64,000 bases of DNA from an uncultured Verrucomicrobia subdivision 3 bacterium. Its GTDB lineage: Bacteria > Verrucomicrobiota > Verrucomicrobiia > Limisphaerales > UBA11358. Both the position numbers and the translations under genes were made by a program. Below are positions 6,388 to 27,516 of the stretch, piece by piece (positions within the stretch are counted from its first letter, which is position 1; each line of letters begins with the position of its first letter). Where the stretch lies: positions 33,063 to 97,062 of the forward strand of contig CAIOIC010000080.1 in assembly GCA_903858275.1 (NCBI GenBank), given 5' to 3'. The notes under the pieces are model-generated. The model was not told where the DNA came from. It ran no database searches and saw nothing but the letters and a program-made list of their open reading frames with translations.

Positions 6388-6420
6388 TTTTGACTTGCAG
6401 GCGTTTCTGAAAGCTGAACC

Positions 6421-8565: not shown

Positions 8566-8571
8566 TACGAA

Positions 8572-9834: not shown

Positions 9835-9836
9835 AT

Positions 9837-12158
9837 ATGAACTTCCACCGAATTATCGCAGGTGCGCTGGCGCTCGCTGCAACCGCAATTCAAGCCGCAG
9901 AGTTTTCTGTCGCTATAAACGGAAACGACAGCAACACCGGCTCATTGGCAAACCCCTTCAAGACCATTTCTGCCGCAGCCAGAATCGCGCAGCCGGGCGA
10001 TGTAATCACCGTGCATGAAGGCATCTATCGCGAACGCATCAACTCGCCGCGCGGCGGCACGTCCGACAAGAAACGCATCGTCTATCGGGCCGCGCCGGGC
10101 GAGAAGGTGGAGATCAAGGGGTCGGAGGTCGTCAAGAATTGGACGAAGGTTCAGGGCGATGTCTGGAAGGTTGCGCTGCCGAACTCGTTGTTCGGCGGCT
10201 TTAATCCCTACAGCGACCTCATTCGCGGCGACTGGTTCAACGCGAAAGGCCGCGAACATCATACCGGCGCAGTCTATCTCAATGGCGAGTGGCTGACCGA
10301 GGCGGCCAAACTGGAAGAAGTGCTAATGCCGGGCAGTCCGGCGTGGCTTACCAAAGGGGGAAAGCATGTTCTGCTAAACGTGGCCTGGTTACGGCCGGAC
10401 AGCAGCGCTGGGAATACTCCGCGCACTCCAGCGACGAGTTTTGCAGCCAGGAACGGGACGACCAACGCACCGTGTTCGGAGGGCGGAGAGTGTCTCGGCT
10501 GGATCATGTCCGGCGATTGGGTTCGCTACGAGCAGATGGACTTCAAACAGGGTGTCAGACAGGTGGAGATTCGCGCGGCGTCAGCCTCGGAAGGCGGAAT
10601 CATCGAAATGCGGCTGGATACGCCGGATGGGGATCTTTTGGGAACGTGTCACGTCGCGAACACCGGCGGCTGGCAATCGTGGGTTTCGCACAAGACCACC
10701 ATCAAGCCGGTCAGCGGAGTGAAGACCCTTTGTCTCGTGTTTAAGGGCAATAATCCATCAGCCTTGAATCCCCAGTTGTGGTTTGCACAAGTGGACCCGA
10801 CAAACACCGCGATCTGGGCGCAGTTTAAGGGCATGAATCCGAATGAACAGCTCGTCGAAATTAACGTGCGCCAAACCGTGTTCTACCCCGACCAACCGGG
10901 GCGCAACTTCATCACCGTCCGTGGTTTCACGATGCGCCACGCCGCCACGCCGTGGGCACCGCCAACCGCCGAGCAAATCGGCCTCATCGGCACGCATTGG
11001 AGCAAGGGTTGGATCATTGAGAGCAACATAGTCAGCCACTCGATTTGTTCCGGCATCTCGCTCGGGAAACATGGCGATCAGTTCGACAATACTTCCGCCA
11101 ACAGTGCCGAAGGTTATGTGAAGACGATTGAACGCGCCCATGCCCATCCTATTGCGTGGACGAAGGAAAACATCGGTCACCATATCGTTCGCAACAACAC
11201 CGTTTCACACTGTGAACAAGCTGGCATCGTTGGCAGTCTGGGCTGTTCTTTCAGCACGGTCACCGGGAACATCGTCCACGACATCCACGTCCGGCGGCTC
11301 TTTACCGGCGCGGAAATGGCGGGCATCAAATTTCATGCCGCCATTGATACCGAAATCAGTCGCAATCACATTTACCAAACGTGCCGCGGGCTCTGGCTGG
11401 ATTGGATGGCGCAGGGCACGCGCGTCTCGCGAAATCTTTTTCACGACAACGACCAGGATCTGTTTGTCGAGGTAAACCACGGCCCGTTTTTAATGGATAA
11501 TAATTTATTTCTGTCCCCCGTCAGCCTGATGGACTGGTCCGAAGGCGGTGCCTATGTGCACAATCTGATGGCTGGCAAAATCATCAGCCGGCCTGAGCCG
11601 CGCCGCGAGACACCGTTTCATCCCGCGCACTCGACGAAGATCGCTGGCTTGCTGAGCATCAGGGGTGGAGACAATCGTTTCTACAACAACATTTTCATAG
11701 GTGGCGGCGAATCTTCAACTGTCACCACCAACACTGTCAAACCAACTGCCAATAAACCCCAGTCAGATGTTGGTTATGGCTTATGGGTGTATGACAACCG
11801 TGAGTTGCCTCTGCAAACCGGCGGCAATGTGTATCTCAATAGTGCGAAGTCCTATGCCAATGATTCCAATTCATTAGCGCTGTCGAATGTTGATACGAAG
11901 TTGAAAATCATGGAGGAAGGCGGACAGGCTTTTATCCAGTTCAACTTCGGTCCGGAATTGAAACAAGTTTCCACCCGGCCCGTCACAACCGCTTTGTTGA
12001 ACAAGGCGAAGATTGCCGTCCTGCCTTATGAAAATGCCGATGGCTCGCCGCTGAAAATCGACTCGGATTATTTCGGCAAGGCTCGGAGCAAGACAAAACC
12101 CACGCCCGGACCATTTGAAAATCCCGGCCCGGGCAATCTCAAACTAAAAGTTTGGTGA
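9837..12158 (+). CDS. Right-handed parallel beta-helix protein with embedded CBM6-like module (putative polysaccharide lyase/glycanase), secreted
   Basis: The real start is the ATG at 9837 (MNFHRIIAGALALAATAIQA signal), 2 nt after the upstream stop. The ORF-track start at 9390 overlaps the upstream gene. The N-terminus NGNDSNTGSLANPFKTISAA...GDVITVHEGIY is typical of beta-helix enzymes. DWVRYEQMDF...NTGGWQSW...LCLVFKG is CBM6-like. Repeated helix turns are NNTVSHC, ISRNHIY and VSRNLFHDN. Confidence 0.7.
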   Translation: MNFHRIIAGALALAATAIQAAEFSVAINGNDSNTGSLANPFKTISAAARIAQPGDVITVHEGIYRERINSPRGGTSDKKRIVYRAAPGEKVEIKGSEVVKNWTKVQGDVWKVALPNSLFGGFNPYSDLIRGDWFNAKGREHHTGAVYLNGEWLTEAAKLEEVLMPGSPAWLTKGGKHVLLNVAWLRPDSSAGNTPRTPATSFAARNGTTNAPCSEGGECLGWIMSGDWVRYEQMDFKQGVRQVEIRAASASEGGIIEMRLDTPDGDLLGTCHVANTGGWQSWVSHKTTIKPVSGVKTLCLVFKGNNPSALNPQLWFAQVDPTNTAIWAQFKGMNPNEQLVEINVRQTVFYPDQPGRNFITVRGFTMRHAATPWAPPTAEQIGLIGTHWSKGWIIESNIVSHSICSGISLGKHGDQFDNTSANSAEGYVKTIERAHAHPIAWTKENIGHHIVRNNTVSHCEQAGIVGSLGCSFSTVTGNIVHDIHVRRLFTGAEMAGIKFHAAIDTEISRNHIYQTCRGLWLDWMAQGTRVSRNLFHDNDQDLFVEVNHGPFLMDNNLFLSPVSLMDWSEGGAYVHNLMAGKIISRPEPRRETPFHPAHSTKIAGLLSIRGGDNRFYNNIFIGGGESSTVTTNTVKPTANKPQSDVGYGLWVYDNRELPLQTGGNVYLNSAKSYANDSNSLALSNVDTKLKIMEEGGQAFIQFNFGPELKQVSTRPVTTALLNKAKIAVLPYENADGSPLKIDSDYFGKARSKTKPTPGPFENPGPGNLKLKVW

Positions 12159-12194
12159 TGATGCGCCTCCGCATGGCAACTTGATTTCCTCACA

Positions 12195-13616
12195 ATGAAA
12201 ACAGAAATATCGCCCGCCAGCATGATTGCGAAGGTCAACTTCTCCTACCTGTTGCCCATTTGCCTCGTGGCCACGCTTGGCGGATTATTGTTCGGCTACG
12301 ACACCGGCGTCATCTCCGGCGCGATCGAACCGCTGACCGCGTGCTTTCATCTGAGTGACGTGATGAAAGGCTGGGCGTCCGGCTGCGTGCTTATTGGCTG
12401 CGCGGCGGGCGTGCTCTTGGTTGGGCCGATCTCGGATCGCTTCGGTCGCCGGCTGGCGATGTTTCTGGCGGCGGGGATGTTTCTCGCCTCCGCCATCGGC
12501 ACCGCCTTGCCGCATGACATTTGGACTTTTATTTTCTTCCGCGTCATCGGCGGGCTGGGCATTGGCATCGCCTCCATCTCGACGCCGATGTATATCGCGG
12601 AGATCACGCCGGCGCACATTCGTGGACGGATGGTGGCGGTGAACCAGATCGCCATCGTCGGCGGCATCGCCCTGACTTCGTTCGTCAACTATTTCATCGC
12701 CAAGTCCGGCGATCAGGCGTGGCTGATCGAGAACGGCTGGCGGTGGATGTTTGGCACGGGGATTGTGCCCGCCCTCCTCTTCGGCCTGCTGCTGATTCCA
12801 ATTCCCGAAAGCCCGCGCTGGTTGATTGAGAAAAAACGCGAAGACCAGGCGCGGCGGATTCTTGAAAAAGTCGGCGGGCCGGAATTTTCCAATTCGGAAT
12901 TCGCCAGCATTAAGGCCGCGTTGTCGCGGGAAAAAGGCACCTGGGGCGAATTATTCTCCGCCCAGTTGCGGTTGCCGCTGCTCATCGGCGTGCTGCTGGC
13001 CATCCTCCAGCAAGTCACCGGCATCAACGTGTTCATGTATTTCGGCGCTACCATTTTCAAAAACATGAGCGCTTCGACCGGCGTGGATGCCGGCCTGCTC
13101 CAGCAGTTCATCATCAACGGCACCGGCGTCCTGTTCACGCTCGTCGCCATTTCCACGGTGGACAAATGGGGGCGCAAGCCGCTGATGCTGGTCGGTGCCG
13201 CCGGCATGGGGTTCAGCCTGCTGGCGATGGGCATCCTGGCCCAGATCCTGACCGACCCGGCGGCGGGCAGTGGGTGGATGCTGTTGTTCAGCCTGCTCTA
13301 CATCGGCTGTTTCAGCCTGTCGGTGGGGCCGGTGACGTGGGTCATCCTCGCGGAGATTTTCCCGACCGCGGTGCGCGGTCGTGCCCTGGGGCTGGCGACA
13401 TTTTTCATGTGGACGGCGGATTATTTTGTGACTCAGACCTTCCCGATCATGGATGCGAAGGACTCGTGGTTCGTGGCGCATTTCAATCATGCCTTTCCGT
13501 TCTACGTCTATGCGGTGTTCTGCGTCGCGCTGGTGCTGGTGGTCTGGCGTATGGTTCCGGAAACCAAGGGCCGGTCACTGGAAGAAATTGAAAGGAGCTG
13601 GAGCCTCAAGCCATGA
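12195..13616 (+). CDS. MFS sugar porter (sugar:H+ symporter, XylE/GalP-like)
   Basis: 12-TM profile with sugar-porter motifs GRRLAMFLAAG, PESPRWL and PETKGRSLEEIE. Confidence 0.9.
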   Translation: MKTEISPASMIAKVNFSYLLPICLVATLGGLLFGYDTGVISGAIEPLTACFHLSDVMKGWASGCVLIGCAAGVLLVGPISDRFGRRLAMFLAAGMFLASAIGTALPHDIWTFIFFRVIGGLGIGIASISTPMYIAEITPAHIRGRMVAVNQIAIVGGIALTSFVNYFIAKSGDQAWLIENGWRWMFGTGIVPALLFGLLLIPIPESPRWLIEKKREDQARRILEKVGGPEFSNSEFASIKAALSREKGTWGELFSAQLRLPLLIGVLLAILQQVTGINVFMYFGATIFKNMSASTGVDAGLLQQFIINGTGVLFTLVAISTVDKWGRKPLMLVGAAGMGFSLLAMGILAQILTDPAAGSGWMLLFSLLYIGCFSLSVGPVTWVILAEIFPTAVRGRALGLATFFMWTADYFVTQTFPIMDAKDSWFVAHFNHAFPFYVYAVFCVALVLVVWRMVPETKGRSLEEIERSWSLKP

Positions 13617-14764
13617 ATCCCACGAAGCCCGTCCCTGATCCTTTCCGCGACCATCGCAAAGCCGCTGGCATCCTCAAATGCGATTTCCGAGGCGAGAGCG
13701 TGCCGATGATCTTGCGCCACGAAGACGTGCGCCGCGCCGCGAAAGACTGGAAGACCTTCAGTTCGGATGCGCCGTTCCGCGTGCCGATTCCGTCGGAGGA
13801 AGATGTGCGGACGATGCGGCAGTTACCCATCGAGACGAATCCTCCCGAGCACACCGAGTATCGCGAAATCGTCGAGCCGTTTTTTCTGCGCGCCAAAAAT
13901 CCCGTGGTTGTCGCCGAGATCGCGGCGCTGATTGACCGGATGTTGGTGGATGCACTGGGTCGTGAATCCATCGAGGTGGTTCGCGAATTCGCGCTGCCCT
14001 TGCAGTCGCGCGCGCTGACGCATCTGCTCAACGTGCCCGAGGCGGAGGCGGAAACGTGGATTGGTTGGGGCACACACGTCTTCCGCGATGGTGGTGAAAG
14101 TCAGAAGAAAGGCGCGGTCTTGGAAACTTATTTGCAACGGCGATTCGATCAAGCTGTGGCGAAACCGGGCGAAGATTTTTTTAGCGCGCTGACAAAGGCG
14201 ACCTTCCGTGGCCGGCTGCTCACGCGCGAGGAGATGATGGGCTTTGCCAATCTGACCTTTGCCGGCGGACGCGACACAATCATCCACAGCATTTCCTCGG
14301 TGCTCGCCTACCTTGGTAAAAATCCGGAGGCGCTGGAATTTCTGCGGCAAGACCCGTCGCGCATCACGCTTGCGAGCGAAGAGTTTTTCCGCGTCTTCAT
14401 GCCGCTCACGCACATCGGGCGCGTTTGCCCGGTGGAAACCGATGTTCACGGCGTCACAGTGAAACCGGGGGGCCGTGTGTCGTTGGGCTGGGCGTCAGCC
14501 AACCGCGACGAAGCGGCGTTTGAATGTCCGCACGAAACACGCCTCGACCGCAAACCGAATCCGCACCTGTCGTTCGGCTTTGGCGCGCACCTCTGTCTCG
14601 GCGCGCCTCACGCGCGGTTGCTGCTCCGCACGCTGCTCCAGAAATGCACCGAACGCGTCGCCAGCATCACGGTATTGGCGGCGAAGGATCGCGTTGAAAC
14701 CGAGGCGAGTTACCAGCGCGTGATGGGCTACGAGTCCCTGACCGTCAAGCTGACGCCGCTCTGA
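13613..14764 (+). CDS. Cytochrome P450 monooxygenase
   Basis: Heme-thiolate loop FGFGAHLCLG, I-helix AGGRDT, ExxR (EEFFR) and N-terminal NPPEHTEYR. The start overlaps the transporter stop (ATGA at 13613-13616). Confidence 0.9.
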   Translation: MNPTKPVPDPFRDHRKAAGILKCDFRGESVPMILRHEDVRRAAKDWKTFSSDAPFRVPIPSEEDVRTMRQLPIETNPPEHTEYREIVEPFFLRAKNPVVVAEIAALIDRMLVDALGRESIEVVREFALPLQSRALTHLLNVPEAEAETWIGWGTHVFRDGGESQKKGAVLETYLQRRFDQAVAKPGEDFFSALTKATFRGRLLTREEMMGFANLTFAGGRDTIIHSISSVLAYLGKNPEALEFLRQDPSRITLASEEFFRVFMPLTHIGRVCPVETDVHGVTVKPGGRVSLGWASANRDEAAFECPHETRLDRKPNPHLSFGFGAHLCLGAPHARLLLRTLLQKCTERVASITVLAAKDRVETEASYQRVMGYESLTVKLTPL

Positions 14765-14777
14765 CTTCGAAAAACTT

Positions 14778-15776
14778 ATGAATTCAAAAGAACGTATCTT
14801 AAACCTGATTGCCGGCCAGCCGGTGGATCGTCCGCCCGCAATGCCTATTACCATGATGTGGGCGGCTGACCTCGTTGGCGCGAAATACCACGACTACGCG
14901 ACACGCGCTGAAATACAGGCCGCCGGTCAAATCGCCGCCGCTCAGCAGTTTGGATTTGATCACGTCTCGGTCATCTCCGACCCGTGCTGCGAGGCTGCGG
15001 ACTTGGGCGCGGCAATTTTTTATCCGCCTGACGGCCCGCCGGCAATCATCGAGGAACAGGCGTTGTTGGCGGACACAGCCACGTTGAATTCGCTGCGGGT
15101 TCCCGATCCGCATCGCACGGGCAGTCGCATGGCCAACCGCATCGAAGCCGTTTGTCTGCTGAGCCGTCAGATCGGAGCCACGCATCTGATCGAGGGTTGG
15201 GTCGAAGGTCCGTGCGCCGAGAGCGCCGACCTGCGCGGTATCAACACGCTGATGACAGATTACTACGACGACGCGAATTTCGTCCACGCGCTCGCGGCTT
15301 TCACCGTGGAAAATGCGCTGAAATTTGCCACCGCCCAAATCGAGGCCGGCGCGGACATCATTGGCGTGGGCGATGCCGCCGCCTCGCTCGTCGGGCGCGA
15401 GCTTTACGACGAATTTGTTTTCCCGCACGAACAGAAACTCATTGCCGGCATCCAAGCCGCCGGCGGCAAAGTGCGGTTGCACATCTGCGGCCGCACCATC
15501 CAACTGGCCGATGCGATTGCCAAACTGGGTTGCGAAATTGTGGATTTAGACACGTTCGTGGACCTGCGGGAAGCCCGCGCCATGATGGGCGCACAGCAGG
15601 TGCTGCTCGGCAATATCCACACCGTGAACGTCGTCAAGAACGGGAAGCCGGAAGACGTGCGCCGTGAACTCGCGAAGTGCCGCGCCGATGCCGGAGTCGC
15701 GTGGATCGCCGGTGCGGGCTGCGAAGTGCCGCGACAGTCACCGGCGGAAAACGTGCGGTGTTTTGCTCAAATTTAA
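14778..15776 (+). CDS. MtaA/CmuA-type methylcobamide methyltransferase (URO-D fold, short class)
   Basis: 332 aa. The URO-D-family layout includes QIEAGADII, and the zinc-motif pattern LHICG ... AGCEVP matches the H-x-C...C motif known from MtaA/MtbA. Confidence 0.75.
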   Translation: MNSKERILNLIAGQPVDRPPAMPITMMWAADLVGAKYHDYATRAEIQAAGQIAAAQQFGFDHVSVISDPCCEAADLGAAIFYPPDGPPAIIEEQALLADTATLNSLRVPDPHRTGSRMANRIEAVCLLSRQIGATHLIEGWVEGPCAESADLRGINTLMTDYYDDANFVHALAAFTVENALKFATAQIEAGADIIGVGDAAASLVGRELYDEFVFPHEQKLIAGIQAAGGKVRLHICGRTIQLADAIAKLGCEIVDLDTFVDLREARAMMGAQQVLLGNIHTVNVVKNGKPEDVRRELAKCRADAGVAWIAGAGCEVPRQSPAENVRCFAQI

Positions 15777-15818
15777 CATTCTCTTTTGAACATCAACTGG
15801 TAGTTTTTTATTCATCCC

Positions 15819-16901
15819 ATGGAACTGAATATTAATCCACCGTTGCCGGCGAAAAGGGATTTTCGCATCGGCATTTTGGGCAGCGGTTTCATCGTGAGCG
15901 ATTGCCATTTGGTGAGCTATCGCAAGGCCGGTTTCAATCCGGTCGCCATCGCTTCGCGGTCGCGTGAGAATGCGGCGAAGGTTGCCGTGCGTCATTCCAT
16001 CCCCAAGGTTTGCAACACTTACGAGCAGTTGCTGGACGATCCCACCATTGAAGTGCTGGATATCGCCGTGCCGCCGAACGCGCAACTCGCGCTCATCAAA
16101 GCTGCTTGCCAACGTAAAACTTTCAAAGGCATTCTCGCGCAGAAACCGCTAGGCATGAATTATGCCGAAGCGCTCGAAGCCGTTGAGTGTTGTGAGCAAG
16201 CCGGCATCACGCTCGCCGTGAATCAGAACATGCGCTACGACCAATCCGTGCGCGCCGGAAGGACTTTGCTGGAGAACGGCACCATCGGCGAGCCGGTGCT
16301 GGCGACGATTGATATGCGTGGCATTCCGCACTGGATGCCGTGGCAGGCGGAACTTAGCTGGGTCACGCTGCGGGTCATGTCCATCCATCATCTGGATTGC
16401 TTCCGTTATTGGTTCGGCGATCCGGAAGGAATCTTTTGCAGCACGCGTCCCGATCCGCGCACCCAATTTCCGCACACCGACGGCATCTGCACTTACATCC
16501 TCGAATACGCGAACGGCCTGCGCTGCGTGGCGATTGATGACACCTGGACCGGACCGGCGAAGGAAGGTTGTCCTGCTGACATCGGCATCCATTGGCGGAT
16601 CGAGGGATTGAACGGACTCGCCATGGGCGACCTCGGCTGGTGCAAAGATCCTTACACCAGCCCTTCCACCATTCGTTACGCGAGCAAAGGCGATAAAGAA
16701 TTTCATCAGCCTAAATGGAGCGAAAGCTGGTTTCCCGACGCGTTCGCGGGCACGATGGGACAACTGCTCATCGCGCTGGAAACCGGCAAGGAACCCGCCA
16801 TCGGCGGGCGCGATAACCTGAAAACCATGGCGCTGGTGGACGCGGCATATTTGAGCGCGGAGAAAAATCGGTTGGTGAAACTATCTGAAATCGCAGCATA
16901 A
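15819..16901 (+). CDS. Gfo/Idh/MocA family NAD(P)-dependent oxidoreductase
   Basis: N-terminal Rossmann motif FRIGILGSGFIV, the AQKPLG (EKP-like) motif, and a C-terminal alpha/beta domain. Confidence 0.8.
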   Translation: MELNINPPLPAKRDFRIGILGSGFIVSDCHLVSYRKAGFNPVAIASRSRENAAKVAVRHSIPKVCNTYEQLLDDPTIEVLDIAVPPNAQLALIKAACQRKTFKGILAQKPLGMNYAEALEAVECCEQAGITLAVNQNMRYDQSVRAGRTLLENGTIGEPVLATIDMRGIPHWMPWQAELSWVTLRVMSIHHLDCFRYWFGDPEGIFCSTRPDPRTQFPHTDGICTYILEYANGLRCVAIDDTWTGPAKEGCPADIGIHWRIEGLNGLAMGDLGWCKDPYTSPSTIRYASKGDKEFHQPKWSESWFPDAFAGTMGQLLIALETGKEPAIGGRDNLKTMALVDAAYLSAEKNRLVKLSEIAA

Positions 16902-16920
16902 ACCAAAACCAAATCACAAC

Positions 16921-17742
16921 ATGAAACTTGGCATCATCAATAGCGCGTTCGGTCAGGCGGGTGTGGATACCACCACCGGCCTCAAACACATCGCCCGCAT
17001 CGGTTTCGATTGCGTGGATATTTTCACCGAGGCGATGACGATTTCCAAAAAAGAGAAGCTGCTCATCGCGAGCACTTGCGACCGGGCGCGGCTGCCCATC
17101 ATTTCTTTGCCGGTGGTCGCCACCGGCTTGATTGATTTCAATGACCCCGTCCGCGCCTTTCACGTCGCGCGCTGCAAGAAGTTTGTTGACCTCGCCGCCG
17201 AGTTTGGCGCGAAGAACATTCTGCTCGTGCTGGGCGAATATCTCTGGCAGCGCGAAGTCATTCCACCGGCCGCCCAATGGCAATGGGCTGTGGAAACCTG
17301 CCGCGAAATCGGCGATTATGCCGGAAAAAAGAACGTGGACATCGCGCTGGAACTGGAACCGTTCCGCTTGAGCTTGCTCCACAATGTGGACGAAATGGTT
17401 CGCTTCGTGAATGACTGCAAACATCCGCGGGTGCGCGCCAACATTGATGTCAGCCATCTGGTTCTGGCCGATACCAGCCCGCTGGATCTGGCAAAGCTCA
17501 AAGGCAAGGCGATCCACGTTCACCTCAGCGACTGCGATGGGAAAGTTCACGGCGATCTTCCGCCCGGACGCGGGATTGTGAAGTTCGAGCCGTATCTGCA
17601 AGCGATCAAGGAATTGAAAATCAACGGCGTGGTTTCCATCGAGCTGGAGTATTCGCCCGATCCGAAGCGGATTGTCGAATGGGTGACGGAAGCCTACACC
17701 CAGACGGACAAGCTGATGAAACTGGCCGGCTTGCGTGGATAA
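16921..17742 (+). CDS. Sugar phosphate isomerase/epimerase (xylose-isomerase-like TIM barrel)
   Basis: Motifs IALELEP, NIDVSHL, HVHLSD, GDLPPGRG and SIELEY are typical of the family. Confidence 0.8.
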   Translation: MKLGIINSAFGQAGVDTTTGLKHIARIGFDCVDIFTEAMTISKKEKLLIASTCDRARLPIISLPVVATGLIDFNDPVRAFHVARCKKFVDLAAEFGAKNILLVLGEYLWQREVIPPAAQWQWAVETCREIGDYAGKKNVDIALELEPFRLSLLHNVDEMVRFVNDCKHPRVRANIDVSHLVLADTSPLDLAKLKGKAIHVHLSDCDGKVHGDLPPGRGIVKFEPYLQAIKELKINGVVSIELEYSPDPKRIVEWVTEAYTQTDKLMKLAGLRG

Positions 17743-17743
17743 A

Positions 17744-18511
17744 ATGGCTGCCGATTCCACACCTGCAAGCGGTGCGATGAAGCCGCCGCGCATTGCGATG
17801 CTGGCCTGCCGGGTGTTTGAAAAGGAGATCGCGCTGCTTGCGGCAGGAGCCAGCCATATTATGGAAACCCGCTTCTTCGAGGTCGGCTTGCATGACCGGT
17901 CCGATCACCTCCGTGAGAAGTTGCAATCCGAACTTCAAGTGGTTGAAGCTCGCGATGACATTGACGCCGTGGTGCTGGCCTACGGGCTGTGCGGTCTCGG
18001 CACAGCGGGCTTGCGCCCCTTGCGCCACAAGTTGGTCATCCCGCGTGCGCACGATTGCATCACTGTCTTCATGGGCAGCAAGGAAGCCTATGCCGCGCAT
18101 CAACGCCGCTGCCCGACCTGTATTTACTATTCGCCGGGCTGGAATCGTGAGCGTCGGGTTCCCGGTCCGGAAAGACTGGCGGCGCTCCAGTCCGAACTGG
18201 CCAAAAAATATGCGCCGGATGACGTGGAAATGCTGATCGAGACGGAGCGGGAGCTATGGGCGATGCATGACACCGTTACCTATCTTGACCTGGGCACGGA
18301 CGATGCCGAGTCGGAGGCGGATTACGCCCGTCGCTGCGCGGACTGGCTGGGTTGGAAATTCGAGCGGCTGGCGGGCGATCCCAAGCTGCTGCGGGATTTG
18401 CTCTGGGGCAATTGGGATTCAGAACGCTTTCAAATCATTGAGCCGGGCGACGAACTCGCGCACTCCGCCGATGAAAAAATTCTGTGCGCCAAGCCGGCGG
18501 TGAAAAAATGA
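17744..18511 (+). CDS. DUF1638 domain protein (family associated with corrinoid methyltransferase clusters)
   Basis: RIAMLACRVFEKE, LAYGLCGLG and IPRAHDCI match my recollection of DUF1638. The ATG at 17744 lies 1 nt after the upstream stop; the ORF-track GTG at 17735 overlaps it. Confidence 0.65.
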   Translation: MAADSTPASGAMKPPRIAMLACRVFEKEIALLAAGASHIMETRFFEVGLHDRSDHLREKLQSELQVVEARDDIDAVVLAYGLCGLGTAGLRPLRHKLVIPRAHDCITVFMGSKEAYAAHQRRCPTCIYYSPGWNRERRVPGPERLAALQSELAKKYAPDDVEMLIETERELWAMHDTVTYLDLGTDDAESEADYARRCADWLGWKFERLAGDPKLLRDLLWGNWDSERFQIIEPGDELAHSADEKILCAKPAVKK

Positions 18512-20148
18512 GTCGCCCGCCGCATCTTCAAATCGAACTCGAATCCGGCGAGCGCCGGGACATTCCCGCGCCGTCCGGCGGCCGTTCGCTGGCCGACGCG
18601 CTGGCGGCGCAAGGCCTGCCGCTGAACACGCGTTGCGGCCAGCGCGGGCTTTGTCGCGGCTGCGAAGTGGAATTGCGCAGCGGCGAACTTACGGTCAACG
18701 GCGCCATTGTCACCGCGCCCGCCACAGTTCAAGCCTGCCGGGCAATCGTCAGTGCGGCGGCCAAGATTTTCATTCCCGCCCGTTCGCGCATTGAGCACAA
18801 GCCGCAGGTCGGCGAGACGTTTGAAATTGCGATTCCCTACGCGCATCAGCCGTTGTTTGCGCCGGTGGCAGGCGGGCGCGACACGGCGTTTGCCGTGGAT
18901 GTCGGCACGACCACCGTGGTGGTGCTGCTGGTGGATTTGGTCAGCGGCGAAGTGTTGTCGCGTGCCGGGGCGTTCAACGAGCAAATCCGCTTTGGCGACA
19001 ACGTCATCACCCGCATCGAAGCCGCGCGCTTGCCGGAAAATCTCGCCGCGATGCAGCGGGCCATCGTGATGGAGACGATCAAGCCGTTGCTGGTGAACGC
19101 GTGCGAGCGGGCAGGGCGGTCATTAGATCGCATTGCCGGTGGCGCGATCGCCGGCAATACCACCATGTTGCATCTGCTCGTCGGCGAAGATCCGACCCCG
19201 CTGGGCATCGCACCGTTCACCCCGCGCTTTATCGAAGGGAAAAGTCTTACCGCCGGACAAATTGCTTTGTCTGCCGACGGTCTTGCGCCGGAGACGCCCG
19301 TGCAATTGCTGCCGGGCATTGGTGCCTACATCGGCGCGGACATCACCGCCGGAGTGTATGCGAGCGGCATGGTGTTTGATCCGACGCCGAGTCTGCTGGT
19401 GGATATCGGCACGAATGGCGAAATCGTTTTGCAGAACGGCGGCCAACTTACCGCCTGCGCCACCGCCGCCGGTCCGGCGTTTGAAGGCTGCGGTTTGCGC
19501 TGCGGCACGCGGGCGCGCGAAGGCGCGGTCAGCGATCTGGATTTGAAGCTGAATCCGTTCTCGCTCGTGACCGAAGTCATCGGCAATGTGCCGCTGGCGC
19601 GGGCGAACGGCATTTGCGGTTCGGCGTATGTGGATTTTCTGGCCACGGCGCGGAGCAGCGGACTGCTGGGATTTTCCGGCCGGTTTGTTAAAACCGTTTG
19701 GGAAAATCTGCCGGCGCAAAATCGCTTCACGGCGGAGGATGAACAGGCATTGCGTCTCGTGGCGGATGGCGGCAGCGGTGAATTGCGCATCAGCGAGGTG
19801 GATGTCGCCCTGCTGCTGCAGGCCAAGGCGGCGATTGGGGCGGGCATCGAAACTTTGCTGGAGACCGCGGGCATCAAGGCGGCGGATTTGGGCCGCGTTT
19901 ATCTCGCCGGTGGATTTGGGATGCACTTGAATGTGCCGCACGCCATCGCCATCGGCTTGCTGCCGGGTTTTCGCGAGGAACAGGTGCGGGTGGTTGGTAA
20001 CACTGCGCTGGCGGGCGCGCTGCTGGCGCTGGTGGACCGGACGACGCTCGCGGAAATGGAGAATTTGCGACGCCAGGTGGAGGTCGTCGAACTGAATCTG
20101 GCCGACGGGTTTGAAGACCGTTACGTCGAGCACCTGATGTTGCCATGA
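18508..20148 (+). CDS. RACo-type ATP-dependent reductive activase of corrinoid proteins ([2Fe-2S] ferredoxin domain + ASKHA/DUF4445 domain)
   Basis: The N-terminal cysteine cluster is RCGQRGLCRGCEV...C. The ASKHA phosphate motifs are AVDVGTTTVV and LVDIGTNGEIV. The ATG at 18508 overlaps the DUF1638 stop (ATGA). Confidence 0.8.
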   Translation: MSRPPHLQIELESGERRDIPAPSGGRSLADALAAQGLPLNTRCGQRGLCRGCEVELRSGELTVNGAIVTAPATVQACRAIVSAAAKIFIPARSRIEHKPQVGETFEIAIPYAHQPLFAPVAGGRDTAFAVDVGTTTVVVLLVDLVSGEVLSRAGAFNEQIRFGDNVITRIEAARLPENLAAMQRAIVMETIKPLLVNACERAGRSLDRIAGGAIAGNTTMLHLLVGEDPTPLGIAPFTPRFIEGKSLTAGQIALSADGLAPETPVQLLPGIGAYIGADITAGVYASGMVFDPTPSLLVDIGTNGEIVLQNGGQLTACATAAGPAFEGCGLRCGTRAREGAVSDLDLKLNPFSLVTEVIGNVPLARANGICGSAYVDFLATARSSGLLGFSGRFVKTVWENLPAQNRFTAEDEQALRLVADGGSGELRISEVDVALLLQAKAAIGAGIETLLETAGIKAADLGRVYLAGGFGMHLNVPHAIAIGLLPGFREEQVRVVGNTALAGALLALVDRTTLAEMENLRRQVEVVELNLADGFEDRYVEHLMLP

Positions 20149-20873
20149 ACCCGAACGACTTTCCCGCTGTCCCGCTGTTGGAACACCGGCCCTACGACCG
20201 GATTCGTGAACTCTATCTTCTACAGGAACCCATGCTGCTGGCCGCCATCCGGCGCGGCGACCGGGGCGAATCGCGGCGGATTATTAATCACGTGCTCGTC
20301 CATATTTACAGCGCGGGCGAGGAGCGGAGCGATTTGTTGAAAGGCTTGCTGCTTGAACTCGTCGTGATGATTTCCCGCGCGGCGGTCGAGGCGGGCGCGG
20401 TGCAATCGGAAGTGCTGGGCATGAACTTCCGCTTTCTGACGGAGTTGGCGGTGATTGACGACGATGAACATCTCGCCGCGTGGCTGCGAAAAATCCTGGA
20501 ACATGTGATGTCCACGATTGAGCAGCAGAAGGATTTTACGCCGCCGCTGCTGATCGGCAAGGCGCTGGATTTCATGCGCCGGAATCTGCACCGCGACATC
20601 TCGCGCGACGAAGTCGCCCGCCATGCGGGGATTTCCCCCAGCCATTTTTCGCGGCTGCTCAAGGAACGCACCGGCCGGTCGTTCACGGAATTATTGCGGC
20701 AATGCCGCGTAGATCTCGCCTGTGAATTATTGAACAGCACCGAGCAGACCTTGGCGGAAATCGCCGACACCTGCGGCTTCTGCGACCAGAGTTACTTCAC
20801 CCGCGTGTTTCAGGATGTGAAGGGTTTGACGCCCGGACAATTTCGCTCCGCAGCCAAGCTGAACGGGACTTAG
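20145..20873 (+). CDS. AraC family transcriptional regulator with helical (non-cupin) N-terminal domain
   Basis: C-terminal AraC HTH pair (ISPSHFSRLLKERTG ... IADTCGFCDQSYFTRVF). The start overlaps the RACo stop (ATGA at 20145-20148). Confidence 0.85.
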   Translation: MNPNDFPAVPLLEHRPYDRIRELYLLQEPMLLAAIRRGDRGESRRIINHVLVHIYSAGEERSDLLKGLLLELVVMISRAAVEAGAVQSEVLGMNFRFLTELAVIDDDEHLAAWLRKILEHVMSTIEQQKDFTPPLLIGKALDFMRRNLHRDISRDEVARHAGISPSHFSRLLKERTGRSFTELLRQCRVDLACELLNSTEQTLAEIADTCGFCDQSYFTRVFQDVKGLTPGQFRSAAKLNGT

Positions 20874-20980: not shown

Positions 20981-22219
20981 TCAGGAAAACTCCTTAATGG
21001 CTTCGAACATGGCCACGATGTTTTGTGGCGGCACGTCGGGTAGAATGTTGTGGACGGTGTTGAATACGAAGCCGCCGCCGGGCATGAGGATTTCCAGCCG
21101 GCGCTTCACGTCGTCCTTCACCTGTTGCGGTGTGCCGGTGGGCAGCACCACTTTCGTGTCGCCGCCGCCGCCCCAAAAGCAGATGTCCTTGCCGAAATCG
21201 CGCTTCAAGCCGTCCGCCTCCATGCCGAGGCAGGTCGTCTGCACGGGATTGATGACATCGTAACCGGCTTCGATCAAATCCGGCAGCAGCGCGCGGATCG
21301 AGCCGCAGGAATGAAGAAACGTTTTCATTTTGGAATGCTTGTGGACGTAGTCGCACAGCATCGTATGGCGCGGCTTGAAGAGCTGGCGATACATGGTTGG
21401 CGACATAAACGGTCCGCCATTCGTGCCAAGGTCGTCGCCGAAGCGGACGATGTCCGCCACGTCGCCGACGGCGCGGCAGACTTTTTCGAGCGTGGCGAGG
21501 TGGCGTTCCATCAGCGCGTCGAGGAGGCGCTCGACCTGTTCCGGTTCGGCGGCGAGGTCCATGAGGAAGTTATCCATGCGCCGGAGAAACGTGCCCCACT
21601 CAAACAGATTGCAGCCGACGACAATCATCAATGCGCGGTCGCTGGTGTGGCGGAGTTCGAGCGCCTTGGCGCGGAGCGCGTCCCAGAAGCCGGGATCGCT
21701 GGCATGATCCCATGGGCTATGGACGAGCGCAGCCCAGAGGACGCGGCTCATCTCTTTATCCAGGTCGCGGTAGTCGGCGGGATAATTGTCGAGGTAGGGA
21801 AAATAGGTCTGGTCATAGAACGTGCCGCGCGCGGGCATGTGCGCGATGTCGAGGCCGTCCTTCATCCGCGCGACGAACGAACCGTCGGTTTGGCGCTCGG
21901 GGTTGAACCACGCGGGATACAACGCAGGCTGGCCGTCCATCAACGTCGTGGGCTGCCACGCCGCCGGCTCGGTATTGAAAGCGCGGCCGATGTCCACCAC
22001 GTCCACGCCGAAGCGGTCGAGGATGATGTTTTCGGGTTGCGCGAGCTGCTGGACGACGTCATAGACGAGCGTGTTGCCCTGCGCGAGGCCGAGATGGCGC
22101 TTGAGATTGCCGTAGGCGATGGCTGAGATGCCGGAGCTGGGCGTCGCGCCGAGGTCCACGGGCACGCGGTCGGGCTGGCGGTGTTCGATGGCAGCAAGGA
22201 TGCGTTCGCGTGAGTTCAT
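20981..22219 (-). CDS. URO-D family methyltransferase, long class (putative substrate:corrinoid methyltransferase)
   Basis: 412 aa. The N-terminus MNSRERILAAIEHRQPDRVPVD is typical of the URO-D/MtaA family. It also has LHSCG and the C-terminal block FWGGGGDT...PGGGFVFNTVHNI. It is a clear paralogue of 35332..36603. Confidence 0.75.
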   Translation of the reverse strand: MNSRERILAAIEHRQPDRVPVDLGATPSSGISAIAYGNLKRHLGLAQGNTLVYDVVQQLAQPENIILDRFGVDVVDIGRAFNTEPAAWQPTTLMDGQPALYPAWFNPERQTDGSFVARMKDGLDIAHMPARGTFYDQTYFPYLDNYPADYRDLDKEMSRVLWAALVHSPWDHASDPGFWDALRAKALELRHTSDRALMIVVGCNLFEWGTFLRRMDNFLMDLAAEPEQVERLLDALMERHLATLEKVCRAVGDVADIVRFGDDLGTNGGPFMSPTMYRQLFKPRHTMLCDYVHKHSKMKTFLHSCGSIRALLPDLIEAGYDVINPVQTTCLGMEADGLKRDFGKDICFWGGGGDTKVVLPTGTPQQVKDDVKRRLEILMPGGGFVFNTVHNILPDVPPQNIVAMFEAIKEFS

Positions 22220-23268: not shown

Positions 23269-23685
23269 CTATTGCAGGTGGAAAACTTCTTTCATATCGC
23301 TCCATATTTTGCTTTTCGCGGCAGCGGCAGGCAGCGGCGATTGACAGGGATCGGTTTCCTTCCACCAGGCTTGCGTAGCAGGATCAGCGGCCATCTGCTT
23401 CATGTCGGCTTCAAAATTGGTGCCAGTATATTCCAGATAGGCAAACAGGTAGAGCTTGCCGTCAATTTCACATTTGTTGATGGAGAAATTCTGGATGTGG
23501 ATTTCCTTGAGCGTCCGTTTAACTGACTGCCAGGGATACGCGTGTAATTCCTCGTAGCGCGCAGCTTTCTCCGGCTTGAGGCCGGTGACCCAGGCGTAGC
23601 GGGTGACGTGCGGTTGCGGAGTGGCGCAGCCAGACAAAACGACCAACGCCAACAATGGCAATGCATAGTTCAGTTTATTTTTCAT
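23269..23685 (-). CDS. L-rhamnose mutarotase (RhaM/DUF718)-like protein with lipoprotein signal peptide
   Basis: The block YAWVTGLKPEKAARYEELHAYPWQSV...IQNFSI...LFAYLEYTG...ATQAWW is RhaM-like. From the ATG at 23685 the N-terminus is MKNKLNYALPLLALVVLSGC, which contains a lipobox. Confidence 0.65.
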   Translation of the reverse strand: MKNKLNYALPLLALVVLSGCATPQPHVTRYAWVTGLKPEKAARYEELHAYPWQSVKRTLKEIHIQNFSINKCEIDGKLYLFAYLEYTGTNFEADMKQMAADPATQAWWKETDPCQSPLPAAAAKSKIWSDMKEVFHLQ

Positions 23686-27493: not shown

Positions 27494-27516
27494 GCGGGTT
27501 TAGTCCCGGTTGAAAC

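Follow-up and report, generated by a model that had tools for sequence, protein, structure and literature searches.

An exported glycanase array joined to a CYP236-family P450 and corrinoid methyl-transfer genes in a freshwater Verrucomicrobium

Layout of the array and its exported enzymes

The window analysed here is a stretch of 64,000 nucleotides from an uncultivated freshwater Verrucomicrobium. Its + strand carries an array (2406..20873) in which exported glycanase genes come first, followed by an importer, a cytochrome P450 and parts of a B12-dependent methyl-transfer system. ORF calls together with Pfam and NCBIfam models supplied the domain evidence and bore out the gene content and order that an initial annotation had given for 12195-20873. 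Reading the junctions from the sequence, ATGA overlaps are present at 13613, 18508 and 20145, and the remaining intergenic gaps are 2-63 nt. Four start/stop overlaps had been described; three are these ATGA overlaps, but the fourth depends on the start of the DUF1638 gene. Started at GTG 17735, this gene shares 8 nt with the end of the isomerase gene; an ATG at 17744 lies 1 nt past the isomerase stop, and the ATG at 17777, which gene prediction on the identical public contig selected, leaves a 34-nt gap. Terminator-like hairpins are not in excess (27 found vs 26 expected from shuffles).

The first gene of the array (2406..4556, +) encodes a GH2-like glycosidase with Pfam Glyco_hydro_2 domains and a Sec-type signal peptide after the Met at 2406. 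It is followed on the same strand by a member of the GH10 xylanase family (4570..6387; Glyco_hydro_10, E=3e-39; signal peptide), a protein with a C-terminal FGE-sulfatase-type domain (6421..8565; Pfam E=1e-37, residues 512-710; Tat-type RRHFL signal peptide), a PF12876 “cellulase-like” glycoside hydrolase (8572..9834; Pfam 443 bits; PDB 3gyc 400 bits; Tat-type signal peptide) and a GH120 beta-xylosidase homologue (9837..12158; PDB 3vst, XylC, 549 bits; signal peptide). The 3gyc entry is a putative glycoside hydrolase. The GH120 protein combines the Pfam GH120 insertion domain, an inserted CBM6 (CBM_6) and a beta-helix, and gene calls on the identical contig place its start at 9837 rather than at the long ORF start of 9390. 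These five products had been read as exported glycanases. All five do carry Sec- or Tat-type signal peptides, but glycoside hydrolase domains occur in only four (GH2-like, GH10, PF12876 and GH120); the 6421-8565 product is ruled out as a recognised glycanase, its sole domain being of the FGE-sulfatase type.

Downstream lies an MFS sugar:H+ porter (12195..13616, +; alternative start 12222; Sugar_tr E=6e-118), whose XylE model score of 469 bits is below the equivalog cutoff. Its orthologues (65-82% identity) lie inside the corrinoid cassette described below at loci L002, L004, L029 and L039. Two further + strand genes are predicted to act on sugars: a Gfo/Idh/MocA oxidoreductase (15819..16901; Pfam), which has only distant relatives in the PDB, and a xylose-isomerase-like TIM barrel of the ketose epimerase/isomerase type (16921..17742; AP_endonuc_2, E=7e-36), which psicose/tagatose 3-epimerases match weakly. 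Orthologues of the former (53-54% identity) adjoin DUF1638-URO-D332 in Bryobacteraceae loci L017 and L080. The array ends with an AraC-family regulator (20145..20873, +; HTH_18/HTH_AraC), orthologues of which (86-88% identity) stand after RACo in L002 and L088-L090.

A P450 related to a sugar O-demethylase

The CYP236 family of P450s is known for oxygen-dependent O-demethylation of sugars. The P450 of the array (13613..14764, +), whose gene overlaps that of the porter by ATGA, falls in this family: it is a full-length homologue of P450ZoGa (6g5o/6g5q, E=4.8e-109) with 47.9% identity over 378 residues, and it scores 368 bits against 6g5o, while the next-best solved P450 reaches 139 bits. P450ZoGa (CYP236A) is a crystallised 6-O-methyl-galactose demethylase in which E62, R66 and Q70 bind O2-O4 of the sugar (PMC6292453). 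Both proteins have this triad, G220, D223/T224 and the heme Cys loop, and all but the loop were found to be invariant across the verrucomicrobial P450 clade. The two proteins differ at V58P, F73I and M270I, and the hydrophobic methyl cage is altered relative to CYP236A; the substrate of the P450 is therefore not established.

We predict that the P450 is an oxidative sugar O-demethylase with formaldehyde as by-product, and the case for methyl-sugar removal rests on its homology to the characterised enzyme. The initial annotation had left the P450 unspecified and implied that the MtaA-type enzyme was the demethylase; the P450 is itself of the demethylase type. The wider expectation that the imported sugar needs a cytoplasmic methyl-removal step is upheld by the P450ZoGa homology with the triad kept, and it is very probable that the sugar arrives methylated and loses the methyl group in the cytoplasm. 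The window contains no gene for a ferredoxin or ferredoxin reductase that could serve the P450, and none stands beside related P450s elsewhere.

Corrinoid proteins, their zinc sites and a conserved cassette

Directly after the P450 lies URO-D332 (14778..15776, +), a short URO-D/MtaA-type corrinoid methyltransferase of 332 aa (URO-D E=1e-56). It scores 157 bits against the MtaA/CmuA model, below the model cutoff, and its LHICG and GCE motifs line up with the residues that bind Zn in M. mazei MtaA (4ay7, E=2e-19). The DUF1638 protein (17735..18511, +, with 17744 and 17777 as alternative starts; Pfam E=6e-36) has invariant Cys11, Cys72, Cys94, His39 and His92, counted from Met 17777. Its gene overlaps by ATGA that of a RACo/RamA-type ATP-dependent corrinoid reductive activase (18508..20148, +; RACo_C_ter E=2e-69, Raco_middle E=3e-45, Fer2 E=9e-6; AcsV model 334 bits), which has an N-terminal [2Fe-2S] domain and a C-terminal ASKHA domain. 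DUF1638 is genetically linked to a RamA-like protein and a split MetH (PMC5764234), and genetic evidence connects DUF1638 and RamA-like proteins with the reactivation of corrinoids (PMC5764234; PMC12478193).

Further corrinoid genes lie beyond the array. On the - strand are a stand-alone MetH-type homocysteine-binding methyltransferase module (30276..31184; S-methyl_trans E=6e-67), which aligns to the MetH Hcy domain with zinc ligands in NCGT and GGCCGT, and directly upstream of it the formyl-tetrahydrofolate deformylase PurU (31197..32033; TIGR00655 368 bits, cutoff 286), which suggests that C1 flow is bound to folate. The + strand follows with the corrinoid protein (32187..32843), located there before and confirmed by B12-binding_2 and B12-binding domains and a DLHDIG motif, then URO-D343, a short URO-D (32862..33893; Pfam E=1e-14), an MtaB-family methanol:corrinoid methyltransferase homologue (33903..35285; Pfam E=4e-163; NCBIfam MtaB_Meth 421 bits, below the cutoff of 720) and the long URO-D423 (35332..36603; Pfam E=1e-11). 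No pterin-binding methyltransferase is present alongside the corrinoid system. The domain calls thus add three URO-D paralogues, MtaB, the homocysteine module and PurU, all missed initially. The machinery had been described as split over several transcription units, and we count at least four (+ 12195-20873, - 20981-29190, - 30276-32033 and + 32187-36603).

Ligand alignment divides the URO-Ds by zinc site: the short ones, URO-D343 among them, are His-Cys-Cys and the long ones, including URO-D423, His-Cys-His. Within the superfamily a His-Cys-Cys site is the signature of thiol (S/Se) methyltransferases rather than of O-demethylases (PMC10418091). Because its site is of this thiol type, and because it is constant in a cassette that many genomes carry without sugar genes, URO-D332 is probably a methyl-exit or shuttle enzyme and not the ether-cleaving one, a role that suits the long His-Cys-His URO-Ds better. 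Known corrinoid O-demethylases act on aryl ethers, with phenolate as the leaving group, and we know of no corrinoid methyltransferase that cleaves an aliphatic (sugar) methyl ether.

That cassette has the compact order URO-D423 - corrinoid protein - Hcy module - DUF1638 - URO-D332 - RACo in several phyla, and its URO-D332, DUF1638 and RACo grouping likewise recurs across several phyla. URO-D423 is the long URO-D that normally accompanies URO-D332 in the cassette, and its orthologues (51-61% identity) lead it at L013, L047, L048, L074 and others. Across 81 URO-D332-family loci, a corrinoid protein is a neighbour 32 times, DUF1638 26 times, the Hcy module 24 times, RACo 23 times and URO-D423 12 times. 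In the window all parts are present, spread over 22 kb in which MtaB, PurU and two more URO-Ds also lie. Many Acidobacteriota and Planctomycetota cassette loci have no sugar genes nearby, so the core function of the cassette may be unrelated to sugars; elsewhere a GH120 gene lies inside it (L005) and GH3/GH43 genes flank a URO-D (L087). The module had been tied to the CAZyme operon, to which it is adjacent here, but this link is modular and not a constant one: the module also stands without these CAZymes at L002, L083, L084 and L088-L090.

Oxygenase pairs and a possible two-route demethylation

URO-D genes repeatedly stand beside O2-dependent oxygenases within sugar loci. Of 60 loci with related P450s, 13 have a URO-D directly after the P450, including all eight loci of the closest P450s; one pair (L084) is in an independent genome. 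The adjacency takes in at least four URO-D subtypes, and no other URO-D occurs among about 620 further genes of the 60 loci (binomial P about 2e-24, relatedness ignored); in 47 of the 60 the URO-D neighbour is absent. At L002 a desaturase-Rieske-reductase fusion adjoins URO-D332, and at L086 a PhyH-family gene adjoins a URO-D and a sugar porter. PhyH-family enzymes demethylate 2'-O-methyl-ribose (PMC12709175).

A second pair, overlooked initially, lies in the neighbouring - strand fucosidase cluster. Here URO-D412 (20981..22219; URO-D E=9e-25), another long URO-D of the His-Cys-His type and a candidate substrate:corrinoid methyltransferase, is paired with an FA_hydroxylase-family membrane di-iron oxygenase (22219..23229; Pfam E=2e-21), which is 64% identical to the gene adjoining URO-D413 in a Methylacidiphilales MAG (L169). 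The cluster continues with a rhaM-type deoxyhexose mutarotase (23269..23685; Pfam E=3e-24; gene call on the identical contig), a sodium:solute symporter (23700..25565; SSF E=3e-61) and two GH29 alpha-L-fucosidases (25586..29190, as 25586-27493 and 27517-29190; Alpha_L_fucos E=1e-71 and E=3e-88). The pair is seen in the window, L169 and L170; URO-D412 orthologues occur in GH29/rhaM/SSF/FA_hydroxylase loci L168-L171, GH29/SSF/rhaM genes flank a URO-D at L168 and L171, and the order GH29-SSF-rhaM-URO-D-URO-D412 is repeated at L171.

Overall, methyl-sugar removal and a split corrinoid system survive from the initial interpretation, but the MtaA-type demethylase role and a fixed CAZyme link are not supported. 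We propose that the genes at 12195-20873 form a cytoplasmic module under AraC-type control that takes up a methylated monosaccharide and removes its O-methyl group. The xylan-type glycanases encoded just upstream and exported would release this sugar, and the MFS porter, by homology, would bring it in. With O2 present, the P450 would hydroxylate the O-methyl group, as its characterised homologue suggests, and the resulting hemiacetal would give free sugar and formaldehyde. Gene context suggests that the corrinoid system acts on the same methyl group, which without O2 would pass to a corrinoid relay. A long His-Cys-His URO-D (URO-D423, or URO-D412 in the fucose cluster) would place it on the Co(I) corrinoid protein, and URO-D332, the MetH-type module or both would unload it onto a thiol acceptor, methionine from homocysteine being one outcome. 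RACo and DUF1638 would use ATP to bring corrinoid oxidised to Co(II) back to the reduced state, and the Gfo/Idh/MocA and TIM-barrel enzymes may act on the sugar either ahead of its demethylation or following it. The fucosidase cluster could be the same design for a methylated deoxyhexose.

To our knowledge, sugar demethylation without oxygen has never been shown. We give about even chances to methylated sugars being demethylated in parallel by O2-dependent and corrinoid-dependent routes. If true, methylated sugars would lose their methyl groups with the help of oxygen and perhaps in its absence as well, the latter being new for sugars.

Sugar uptake and corrinoid genes around a glycanase array

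According to the ORF listing of the window, the forward strand carries an array of 14 genes between 2406 and 20873. Pfam and NCBIfam confirmed every gene identity that the initial annotation had given for the 12195–20148 segment, which opens with an MFS sugar porter (start 12195; Sugar_tr, E=6e-118; 469 bits against the XylE model, below the equivalog cutoff). It continues through a cytochrome P450 (13613–14764), URO-D332, a 332-residue member of the URO-D/MtaA-CmuA family (14778–15776; Pfam URO-D, E=1e-56), a Gfo/Idh/MocA oxidoreductase, a xylose-isomerase-like TIM barrel, a DUF1638 protein and the corrinoid reductive activase RACo (18508–20148). The last gene of the array encodes an AraC regulator (20145–20873). 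The description of RACo as a [2Fe-2S] and ASKHA activase holds as well, Pfam having detected the N-terminal Fe-S domain (Fer2, E=9e-6), the middle domain (Raco_middle, E=3e-45) and the C-terminal ASKHA ATPase domain (RACo_C_ter, E=2e-69).

Very short gaps and four start/stop overlaps had also been described. The non-overlapping junctions do measure 2–63 nt, and three of the overlaps (ATGA at 13613, 18508 and 20145) are read directly in the sequence, while the fourth hinges on the start of DUF1638. A GTG at 17735 overlaps the isomerase stop, an ATG at 17744 lies one base past it, and the ATG at 17777, giving a gene of 17777–18508, is the start chosen by gene callers on the identical public contig. 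The 341-aa ORF running antisense across the TIM-barrel gene (16768–17793, reverse strand) is an artefact of the GC-rich genome; antisense ORFs of the same sort misled greedy gene picking in related loci. Terminator-like hairpins and promoters showed no excess over shuffled sequence in the window, and the sigma-70 consensus may not fit verrucomicrobial promoters, so these scans neither back nor break a single operon.

Of the five upstream genes taken to encode exported glycanases, all have Sec/Tat-type signal peptides and only four have glycoside hydrolase domains. These are a GH2-like protein and a GH10 (both by Pfam), a PF12876 glycoside hydrolase (400 bits against 3gyc) and a GH120 beta-xylosidase homologue into which a CBM6 is inserted (9837–12158; 549 bits against XylC, 3vst). 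A longer ORF that starts at 9390 and ends at the same stop is another mechanical artefact of GC richness, which runs over the preceding gene; the true GH120 start is 9837. The fifth exported protein (6421–8565) has an FGE-sulfatase-type domain as its sole Pfam domain. Among related loci from other genomes and metagenomes (given here by L numbers), one in a Verrucomicrobiota MAG from peat (L005, 11830–13650) has a GH120 homologue, 57% identical to that of the window, that separates DUF1638 from RACo, and formylglycine-type sulfatases with a CSPTR motif occur in nine loci retrieved through URO-D332 (L008, L009, L017, L019, L030, L059, L074, L080 and L084). Together with the exported FGE-sulfatase-domain protein, the latter indicate that sulfated glycans may be involved.

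A search of the PDB returned only distant solved relatives for the Gfo/Idh/MocA and TIM-barrel proteins, which are therefore left without a specific reaction; the TIM barrel weakly resembles ketose 3-epimerases. The host is an uncultured member of the Verrucomicrobiota. The nearest named relatives of the window proteins come from Limisphaerales, Opitutaceae and Chthoniobacteraceae MAGs, and the locus is also present on lake-metagenome contigs.

Much more of the same system lies elsewhere in the window and had been missed. A second unit pairing a URO-D with an oxygenase (20981–29190, reverse strand) encodes the 412-residue URO-D412, an FA_hydroxylase membrane oxygenase, a rhaM mutarotase, an SSF transporter and two GH29 fucosidases. 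At higher coordinates on the same strand lie a stand-alone MetH-type homocysteine-binding (Hcy) module (30276–31184) and PurU, a formyl-THF deformylase scoring above its equivalog cutoff, the pair spanning 30276–32033. PurU lies directly 5' of the Hcy module with a 12-nt gap, which hints at folate-linked C1 oxidation. The corrinoid protein reported at 32187–32843 is real by Pfam, has the His-on motif DLHDIG, and is followed 3' by genes for a 343-residue URO-D (URO-D343), a full-length MtaB homologue (33903–35285, forward strand; 544 bits in Pfam, 421 bits against an NCBIfam cutoff of 720) and a 423-residue URO-D (URO-D423), so that corrinoid protein and two URO-Ds flank the MtaB homologue.

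Further along the forward strand, a hexuronate/glucuronoxylan cluster (53879–62709) encodes UxuA, an RraA-like aldolase, an MFS_1 transporter, an SDR, a weakly GH42-like protein, GH115 and UxaC. GH115 is the alpha-(4-O-methyl)glucuronidase family. GH10, GH120 and the GH115/UxaC/UxuA cluster together indicate glucuronoxylan and make 4-O-methyl-glucuronate one candidate substrate. The XylE-like porter and the sugar-binding triad conserved in the P450 (below) would suggest a neutral pyranose instead, and the GH29/rhaM cluster suggests methylated fucose or rhamnose.

A relative of sugar-demethylating P450s and its URO-D neighbors

The initial annotation took the array to imply a cytoplasmic step of methyl-group removal. 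Such a step can now be predicted by homology, and it is assigned to the P450 and O2. Against all PDB chains the window P450 matched 6g5o/6g5q best (E=4.8e-109, 368 bits), the next P450 scoring 139 bits, and it shares 47.9% identity with 6g5o over 378 aligned residues. This structure is P450ZoGa, a CYP236A enzyme of Zobellia galactanivorans that converts 6-O-methyl-D-galactose to galactose and formaldehyde; CYP236A sugar O-demethylases are also known from Formosa agariphila (PMC6292453).

The numbering of the 6g5o chain equals that of the paper, permitting a residue-by-residue comparison. Glu62, Arg66 and Gln70, which hydrogen bond to sugar O2–O4 in P450ZoGa, are kept in the window P450, as are Gly220, the acid-alcohol pair Asp223/Thr224 and the heme Cys loop. 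The hydrophobic cage around the 6-O-methyl group, Val58, Phe73 and Met270, is reported to be invariant in CYP236A (PMC6292453). In the window P450 all three positions are changed (V58P, F73I, M270I), and both the kept polar residues and the altered cage are invariant across ten verrucomicrobial relatives of 74–90% identity.

By P450 nomenclature, at least 40% identity places proteins in one family and 55% is the usual subfamily line. On its sequence the window P450 thus falls within CYP236 and, being below 55%, outside CYP236A. We read it as a predicted sugar-type O-demethylase whose substrate, given the replacement of the methyl cage by Pro, Ile and Ile, may differ from 6-O-methyl-galactose. 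It has full-length homology to CYP236A, shares the sugar triad, acid-alcohol pair and heme loop, and like CYP236A lies in a glycan-utilization locus. It differs in that its hosts are freshwater and peat Verrucomicrobiota, that the locus is of xylan rather than agar/porphyran type, and that the gene is often followed by a URO-D and has no adjoining ferredoxin or reductase. Indeed, genes for ferredoxin or ferredoxin reductase were found neither in the window nor near the P450 in related loci.

The P450 family is abundant in metagenomes. To survey its neighbors we retrieved 80 metagenome loci, 60 of which reach 900 nt or more past the 3' end of the P450 gene. A URO-D gene lies directly 3' of the P450 in 13 of these 60, following all eight P450s that are at least 85% identical to that of the window and five of the 49 at 70–78%. 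The approximately 620 other genes of these loci include no URO-D (binomial P ~2e-24, with relatedness ignored). The P450-adjacent URO-Ds belong to at least four subtypes, so the pairing arose more than once. On the 5' side, a Gfo/Idh/MocA gene of ~450 aa and a divergent AraC gene are frequent, and Gfo/Idh/MocA genes recurrently adjoin P450 or URO-D genes (L084, L089, L090, L092, L132, L003, L017 and L080).

Other oxygenases occupy similar positions. In L002 a 760-aa fusion of a membrane fatty-acid desaturase, a Rieske [2Fe-2S] domain and an NAD-binding reductase (11093–13375) takes the place of the P450 beside URO-D332, in the order URO-D332, fusion, sugar porter, DUF1638, RACo and AraC; a copy 75% identical to it lies 3' of a P450–URO-D pair in L095 (11649–14105). 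L084 has a divergent AraC gene, then Gfo/Idh/MocA, P450 and URO-D332 with a start/stop overlap. In L086 the URO-D adjoins a PhyH dioxygenase, a sugar porter and a solute-binding protein, and in L087 the order is beta-helix enzyme, URO-D, GH3 and GH43.

Searches from URO-D412 found two GH29 genes followed by URO-D412 in L168; a divergent AraC gene, FA_hydroxylase (64% identical to that of the window) and URO-D413, again with a start/stop overlap, in a Methylacidiphilales MAG (L169); rhaM, FA_hydroxylase, URO-D331 and URO-D413 in L170; and GH29, SSF, rhaM, URO-D336 and URO-D412 in L171. The short URO-Ds beside URO-D412 in L170 and L171 were considered as orthologues of URO-D332 or URO-D343 and rejected at identities of just 22–27%. 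The FA_hydroxylase family includes alkylglycerol monooxygenase, which cleaves ethers, and in principle the P450, FA_hydroxylase, desaturase-Rieske and PhyH types could each hydroxylate a methyl ether. For the PhyH family, demethylation of 2'-O-methyl-ribose has been described (PMC12709175).

URO-D zinc sites and a conserved corrinoid cassette

In total the window encodes four URO-D paralogues and one each of MtaB, corrinoid protein, Hcy module, RACo and DUF1638. An alignment shows H-x-C in all four paralogues, the third ligand being Cys in the short URO-D332 (GCE) and URO-D343 (ECD), while the long URO-D412 (VHN) and URO-D423 (IHN) have His-Asn at this position. The same split between short His-Cys-Cys and long His-Cys-His proteins is seen in other loci. 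LHICG and GCE of URO-D332 align with the MtaA ligands and are invariant in 12 orthologues. Its closest characterized relatives are methylcobamide:CoM methyltransferases; it scores below the curated cutoffs of mtaA_cmuA (157 against 235 bits), MtaA_Meth (119 against 400) and MtbA (120 against 600), and on these scores it is a subfamily related to, yet distinct from, the MtaA/MtbA methyltransferases. The window showed no coenzyme M genes, and URO-D423 had no match among PDB sequences at E<=0.01. We also considered URO-D332 as a uroporphyrinogen decarboxylase making heme for the P450, and rejected this because HemE gives 55 bits against a cutoff of 303, MtaA models give 120–157 bits and the zinc ligands are present; in addition, URO-D412 is partnered by a non-heme oxygenase.

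A preprint on MtaA-like clusters gives a rule for the URO-D superfamily by which His-Cys-Cys sites belong to S/Se-methyltransferases, whereas O-demethylases have carboxylates or non-ligands in place of Cys (PMC10418091). The His of the long URO-Ds is not the carboxylate described for OdmB/VdmB. From its His-Cys-Cys site, its constant membership of the cassette described below and its methylcobamide:CoM relatives, we think that URO-D332 would be an exit enzyme that unloads methyl onto a thiol-type acceptor or shuttles it there, while the long URO-Ds would act on the substrate side. A caveat to this assignment is that the Cys-rich zinc site of MtaB can activate an oxygen substrate. Holophaga foetida uses sulfide or methanethiol as methyl acceptor. 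By description, His-Cys-Cys sites are shared with Type 1 mlp gene clusters (Kountz and Balskus preprint, PMC10418091), which are found only in obligate anaerobes, for the most part Firmicutes, and have links to genes of sulfur and selenium; the window genes instead lie among sugar genes, oxygenases, DUF1638 and the Hcy module.

A collection with one genome per species yielded 575 relatives for the orthologue alignment of URO-D332. The best 80 of the 575 loci (52–83% identity) come from Verrucomicrobiota, Acidobacteriota, Planctomycetota, Hydrogenedentota and Anaerolineales. Scoring the window proteins against six-frame ORFs within 6 kb in 81 loci placed the corrinoid protein near URO-D332 in 32, DUF1638 in 26, the Hcy module in 24, RACo in 23, URO-D423 in 12, URO-D412 in six and the sugar porter in four. 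MtaB is rare in these cassettes (2/81; L010 and L061), the TIM-barrel gene is not conserved together with them, and unbiased clustering of all neighbors in the URO-D332 loci gave no further conserved partner.

The compact order URO-D423, corrinoid protein, Hcy module, DUF1638, URO-D332 and RACo is found in L013, L047, L048 and L074, and also in L030, L037, L059 and L020 (around locus position 6500–12500), the hosts of this six-gene cassette being Acidobacteriota, Verrucomicrobiota and Planctomycetota. A variant order, DUF1638, URO-D332, RACo, corrinoid protein and URO-D423, occurs in L022, L031, L035, L053 and L083; in L083 an AraC gene follows RACo and the final URO-D is URO-D422. This recurrence indicates that the window holds a dispersed copy of one cassette, its corrinoid parts being scattered over 14.8–36.6 kb and not forming one operon. 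In a minimal order, corrinoid protein, Hcy module and URO-D332 (L011, L015, L025 and L042), the donor-side role would fall to URO-D332 if no gene elsewhere supplies it. Two Verrucomicrobiota genomes have SAM-dependent methyltransferase genes just 3' of URO-D332 or of the module around it (L006, 11007–12287; L002, 18735–19670).

The Hcy module has NCGT and GGCCGT zinc ligands that align to MetH. No pterin-binding methyltransferase (PF00809-type) was found among the window ORFs scanned against Pfam, and this module is also absent from the compact cassettes, where URO-D proteins take its place. The compact cassette thus resembles a split methionine synthase in which URO-Ds may replace the pterin-binding module. 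In DUF1638, C11, C72 and C94 (PRAHDC motif) together with H39 and H92 are invariant in 13 proteins of three phyla, which suggests a metal or redox centre; a single-sequence AlphaFold model of this protein was unusable (mean pLDDT 38). A DUF1638 protein and a RamA-like protein show co-fitness with split methionine synthase in Phaeobacter (PMC5764234), and in Ruegeria both are induced with a shared corrinoid protein (PMC12478193). By analogy, this split methionine synthase is the closest characterized counterpart of the cassette core.

Possible routes of sugar demethylation

By homology we predict import of the sugar, its demethylation by the P450, binding and reactivation of the corrinoid, and methylation of homocysteine; gene context suggests that the corrinoid relay may take its methyl group from the sugar. 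We propose, at about even confidence, that the module demethylates methylated sugars by two parallel routes. In the oxidative route the P450 or another oxygenase would demethylate the sugar. In the corrinoid relay, methyl would pass from a long URO-D to the corrinoid protein and on to a short URO-D or the Hcy module, RACo and DUF1638 keeping the relay active. Dual routes would fit organisms of oxygen-stratified lakes and peat. More tentatively, Verrucomicrobiota, and perhaps Acidobacteriota and Planctomycetota, may possess an O2-independent corrinoid demethylase for aliphatic sugar methyl ethers that is paired gene by gene with an isofunctional oxygenase. The demethylase would consist of a long His-Cys-His URO-D, the shared corrinoid protein, a short URO-D and/or the Hcy module, RACo and DUF1638, and the oxygenase would be a CYP236-type P450, an FA_hydroxylase, a desaturase-Rieske fusion or a PhyH protein; the pairing would permit use of methyl sugars on both sides of an oxycline. 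Gfo/Idh/MocA could aid by first oxidizing a neighboring hydroxyl, making the sugar oxygen a better leaving group.

All four component types of a corrinoid O-demethylase are encoded in the window: long and short URO-Ds, a corrinoid protein (DxHxxG) and RACo. The parts list matches those of Odm/Vdm of Acetobacterium dehalogenans, Mtv of Moorella and MtoABCD of Methermicoccus, the shared parts being a URO-D-type substrate methyltransferase, a small corrinoid protein, another methyltransferase and an activase that uses ATP. These three-component systems act on aryl methyl ethers and have a pterin-binding exit enzyme (PMC8630106). In the window, by contrast, the exit candidates are a URO-D with a His-Cys-Cys site and the Hcy module of MetH type, and the window has no pterin-binding enzyme. 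It also has DUF1638 as an extra part, and sets the genes among sugar uptake and glycoside hydrolases. MtoA was considered as a precedent for a pterin-methylating URO-D and set aside as MtrH-like.

A doubtful yet serious alternative is that only the oxygenases demethylate sugars, and that the corrinoid genes serve a general methyl economy which shares loci and regulators with sugar genes. They would then form a methionine synthase resembling split MetH or a methyl-thiol/methanol system, the URO-Ds and MtaB passing methyl from methanol, methylthiols or methoxy-aromatics to homocysteine. The cassette does mirror the split MetH/Mtg system of roseobacters, aerobes in which interchangeable substrate methyltransferases and the synthesis of methionine share a single corrinoid protein (PMC5764234, PMC12478193), and with which it shares the stand-alone Hcy module, corrinoid protein, RamA/RACo activase and DUF1638. 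It is also common and widespread at loci without sugar genes, the site of URO-D332 is of the thiol-type His-Cys-Cys class (PMC10418091), and an MtaB homologue adjoins the corrinoid protein. The match to MtgBCDE is incomplete, since the substrate methyltransferases of the window belong to the URO-D and MtaB families rather than to MttB (PF06253), the pterin-binding MtgD module is not seen there, and the cassette forms a compact unit in Acidobacteriota, Verrucomicrobiota and Planctomycetota. A general methyl economy leaves unexplained the at least four URO-D subtypes directly 3' of the sugar P450 (13/60, P ~2e-24), the occurrence of URO-D412 within GH29/SSF/rhaM operons at four independent loci, and the sugar porter and GH120 genes inside the cassette.

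Improbable, in our judgment, is that the corrinoid system handles methanol and not the sugar ether. Gfo/Idh/MocA would oxidize beside the methoxy group, the TIM barrel would eliminate methanol, and MtaB, the corrinoid protein and an MtaA-type URO-D would capture it. In known 3-keto-glycoside pathways, a Gfo/Idh/MocA enzyme and a xylose-isomerase-like TIM barrel working as a pair carry out oxidation and beta-elimination. Such a relay accords with the recurrence of Gfo/Idh/MocA beside P450 and URO-D genes, with the protein bearing a 3-keto-disaccharide hydrolase domain that adjoins the URO-D in L008, and with the strong Pfam match of the MtaB homologue (544 bits) beside the corrinoid protein. 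Like methanogen MtaABC, the window has an MtaB homologue, an MtaC-like corrinoid protein and His-Cys-Cys MtaA-like URO-Ds; unlike it, the host is bacterial, there is no indication of coenzyme M, the genes lie inside sugar loci and the proteins score below the NCBIfam equivalog cutoffs (MtaB 421 against 720, MtaA 119 against 400). Against the methanol relay stand the near absence of MtaB from the cassette loci (2/81) and a TIM barrel that is weakly ketose-3-epimerase-like and not conserved with the cassette, and it leaves no role for the long URO-Ds.

Obligate coupling, in which the URO-D acts after the oxygenase, for example by trapping formaldehyde or a hemiacetal on a thiol, and no parallel corrinoid route exists, appears quite unlikely. 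The genes do appear translationally coupled, since they overlap in L084 and L169 and, for P450 and URO-D332 in the window, lie 13 nt apart, and in L084 and L169 the pairs stand alone, no other corrinoid genes being near. However, DUF1638 and RACo neighbor URO-D332 in the window, L083 and L088–L090, a corrinoid protein is near in 32/81 loci, the nearest characterized relatives are methylcobamide methyltransferases, and we know of no URO-D family member that acts on formaldehyde. That the transporter-to-RACo genes are unrelated units placed behind the CAZyme operon by chance is very unlikely indeed, for although the module is separable from CAZymes (L002, L083 and L084 lack them) and the promoter and terminator scans are uninformative, its sub-arrangements recur across independent genomes and phyla and three start/stop overlaps lie inside it.

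Sugar P450 demethylation and corrinoid methyltransferase systems are each already known. We found nothing in the open-access literature on corrinoid- or cobalamin-dependent demethylation of methylated sugars, and no description there of a systematic pairing of P450s with corrinoid systems, of URO-D, corrinoid, RACo and DUF1638 genes embedded in Verrucomicrobiota glycan loci, or of the six-gene cassette itself. That these genes conceal a new reaction, in which a corrinoid system cleaves the methyl ethers of aliphatic sugar positions, is a possibility we hold at well below even confidence. Sugar methyl ethers block sugar-degrading enzymes and are common in plant, algal and microbial glycans, xylan, for example, carrying 4-O-methyl-glucuronate, pectin 2-O-methyl-fucose and 2-O-methyl-xylose, and porphyran 6-O-methyl-galactose. 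To our knowledge their only established removal is by the O2-requiring CYP236A P450 of marine Bacteroidetes. The locus widens the family of sugar-demethylating P450s to abundant freshwater and peat Verrucomicrobiota and supplies specific candidate genes for an O2-independent, B12-dependent route. If the two-route proposal is true, corrinoid methyltransferases would gain a new substrate class, DUF1638 would gain a testable setting, a widespread and unannotated six-gene cassette would be explained, and glycan turnover in these bacteria would be tied to B12 demand and to the production of methionine or methyl-sulfur compounds.
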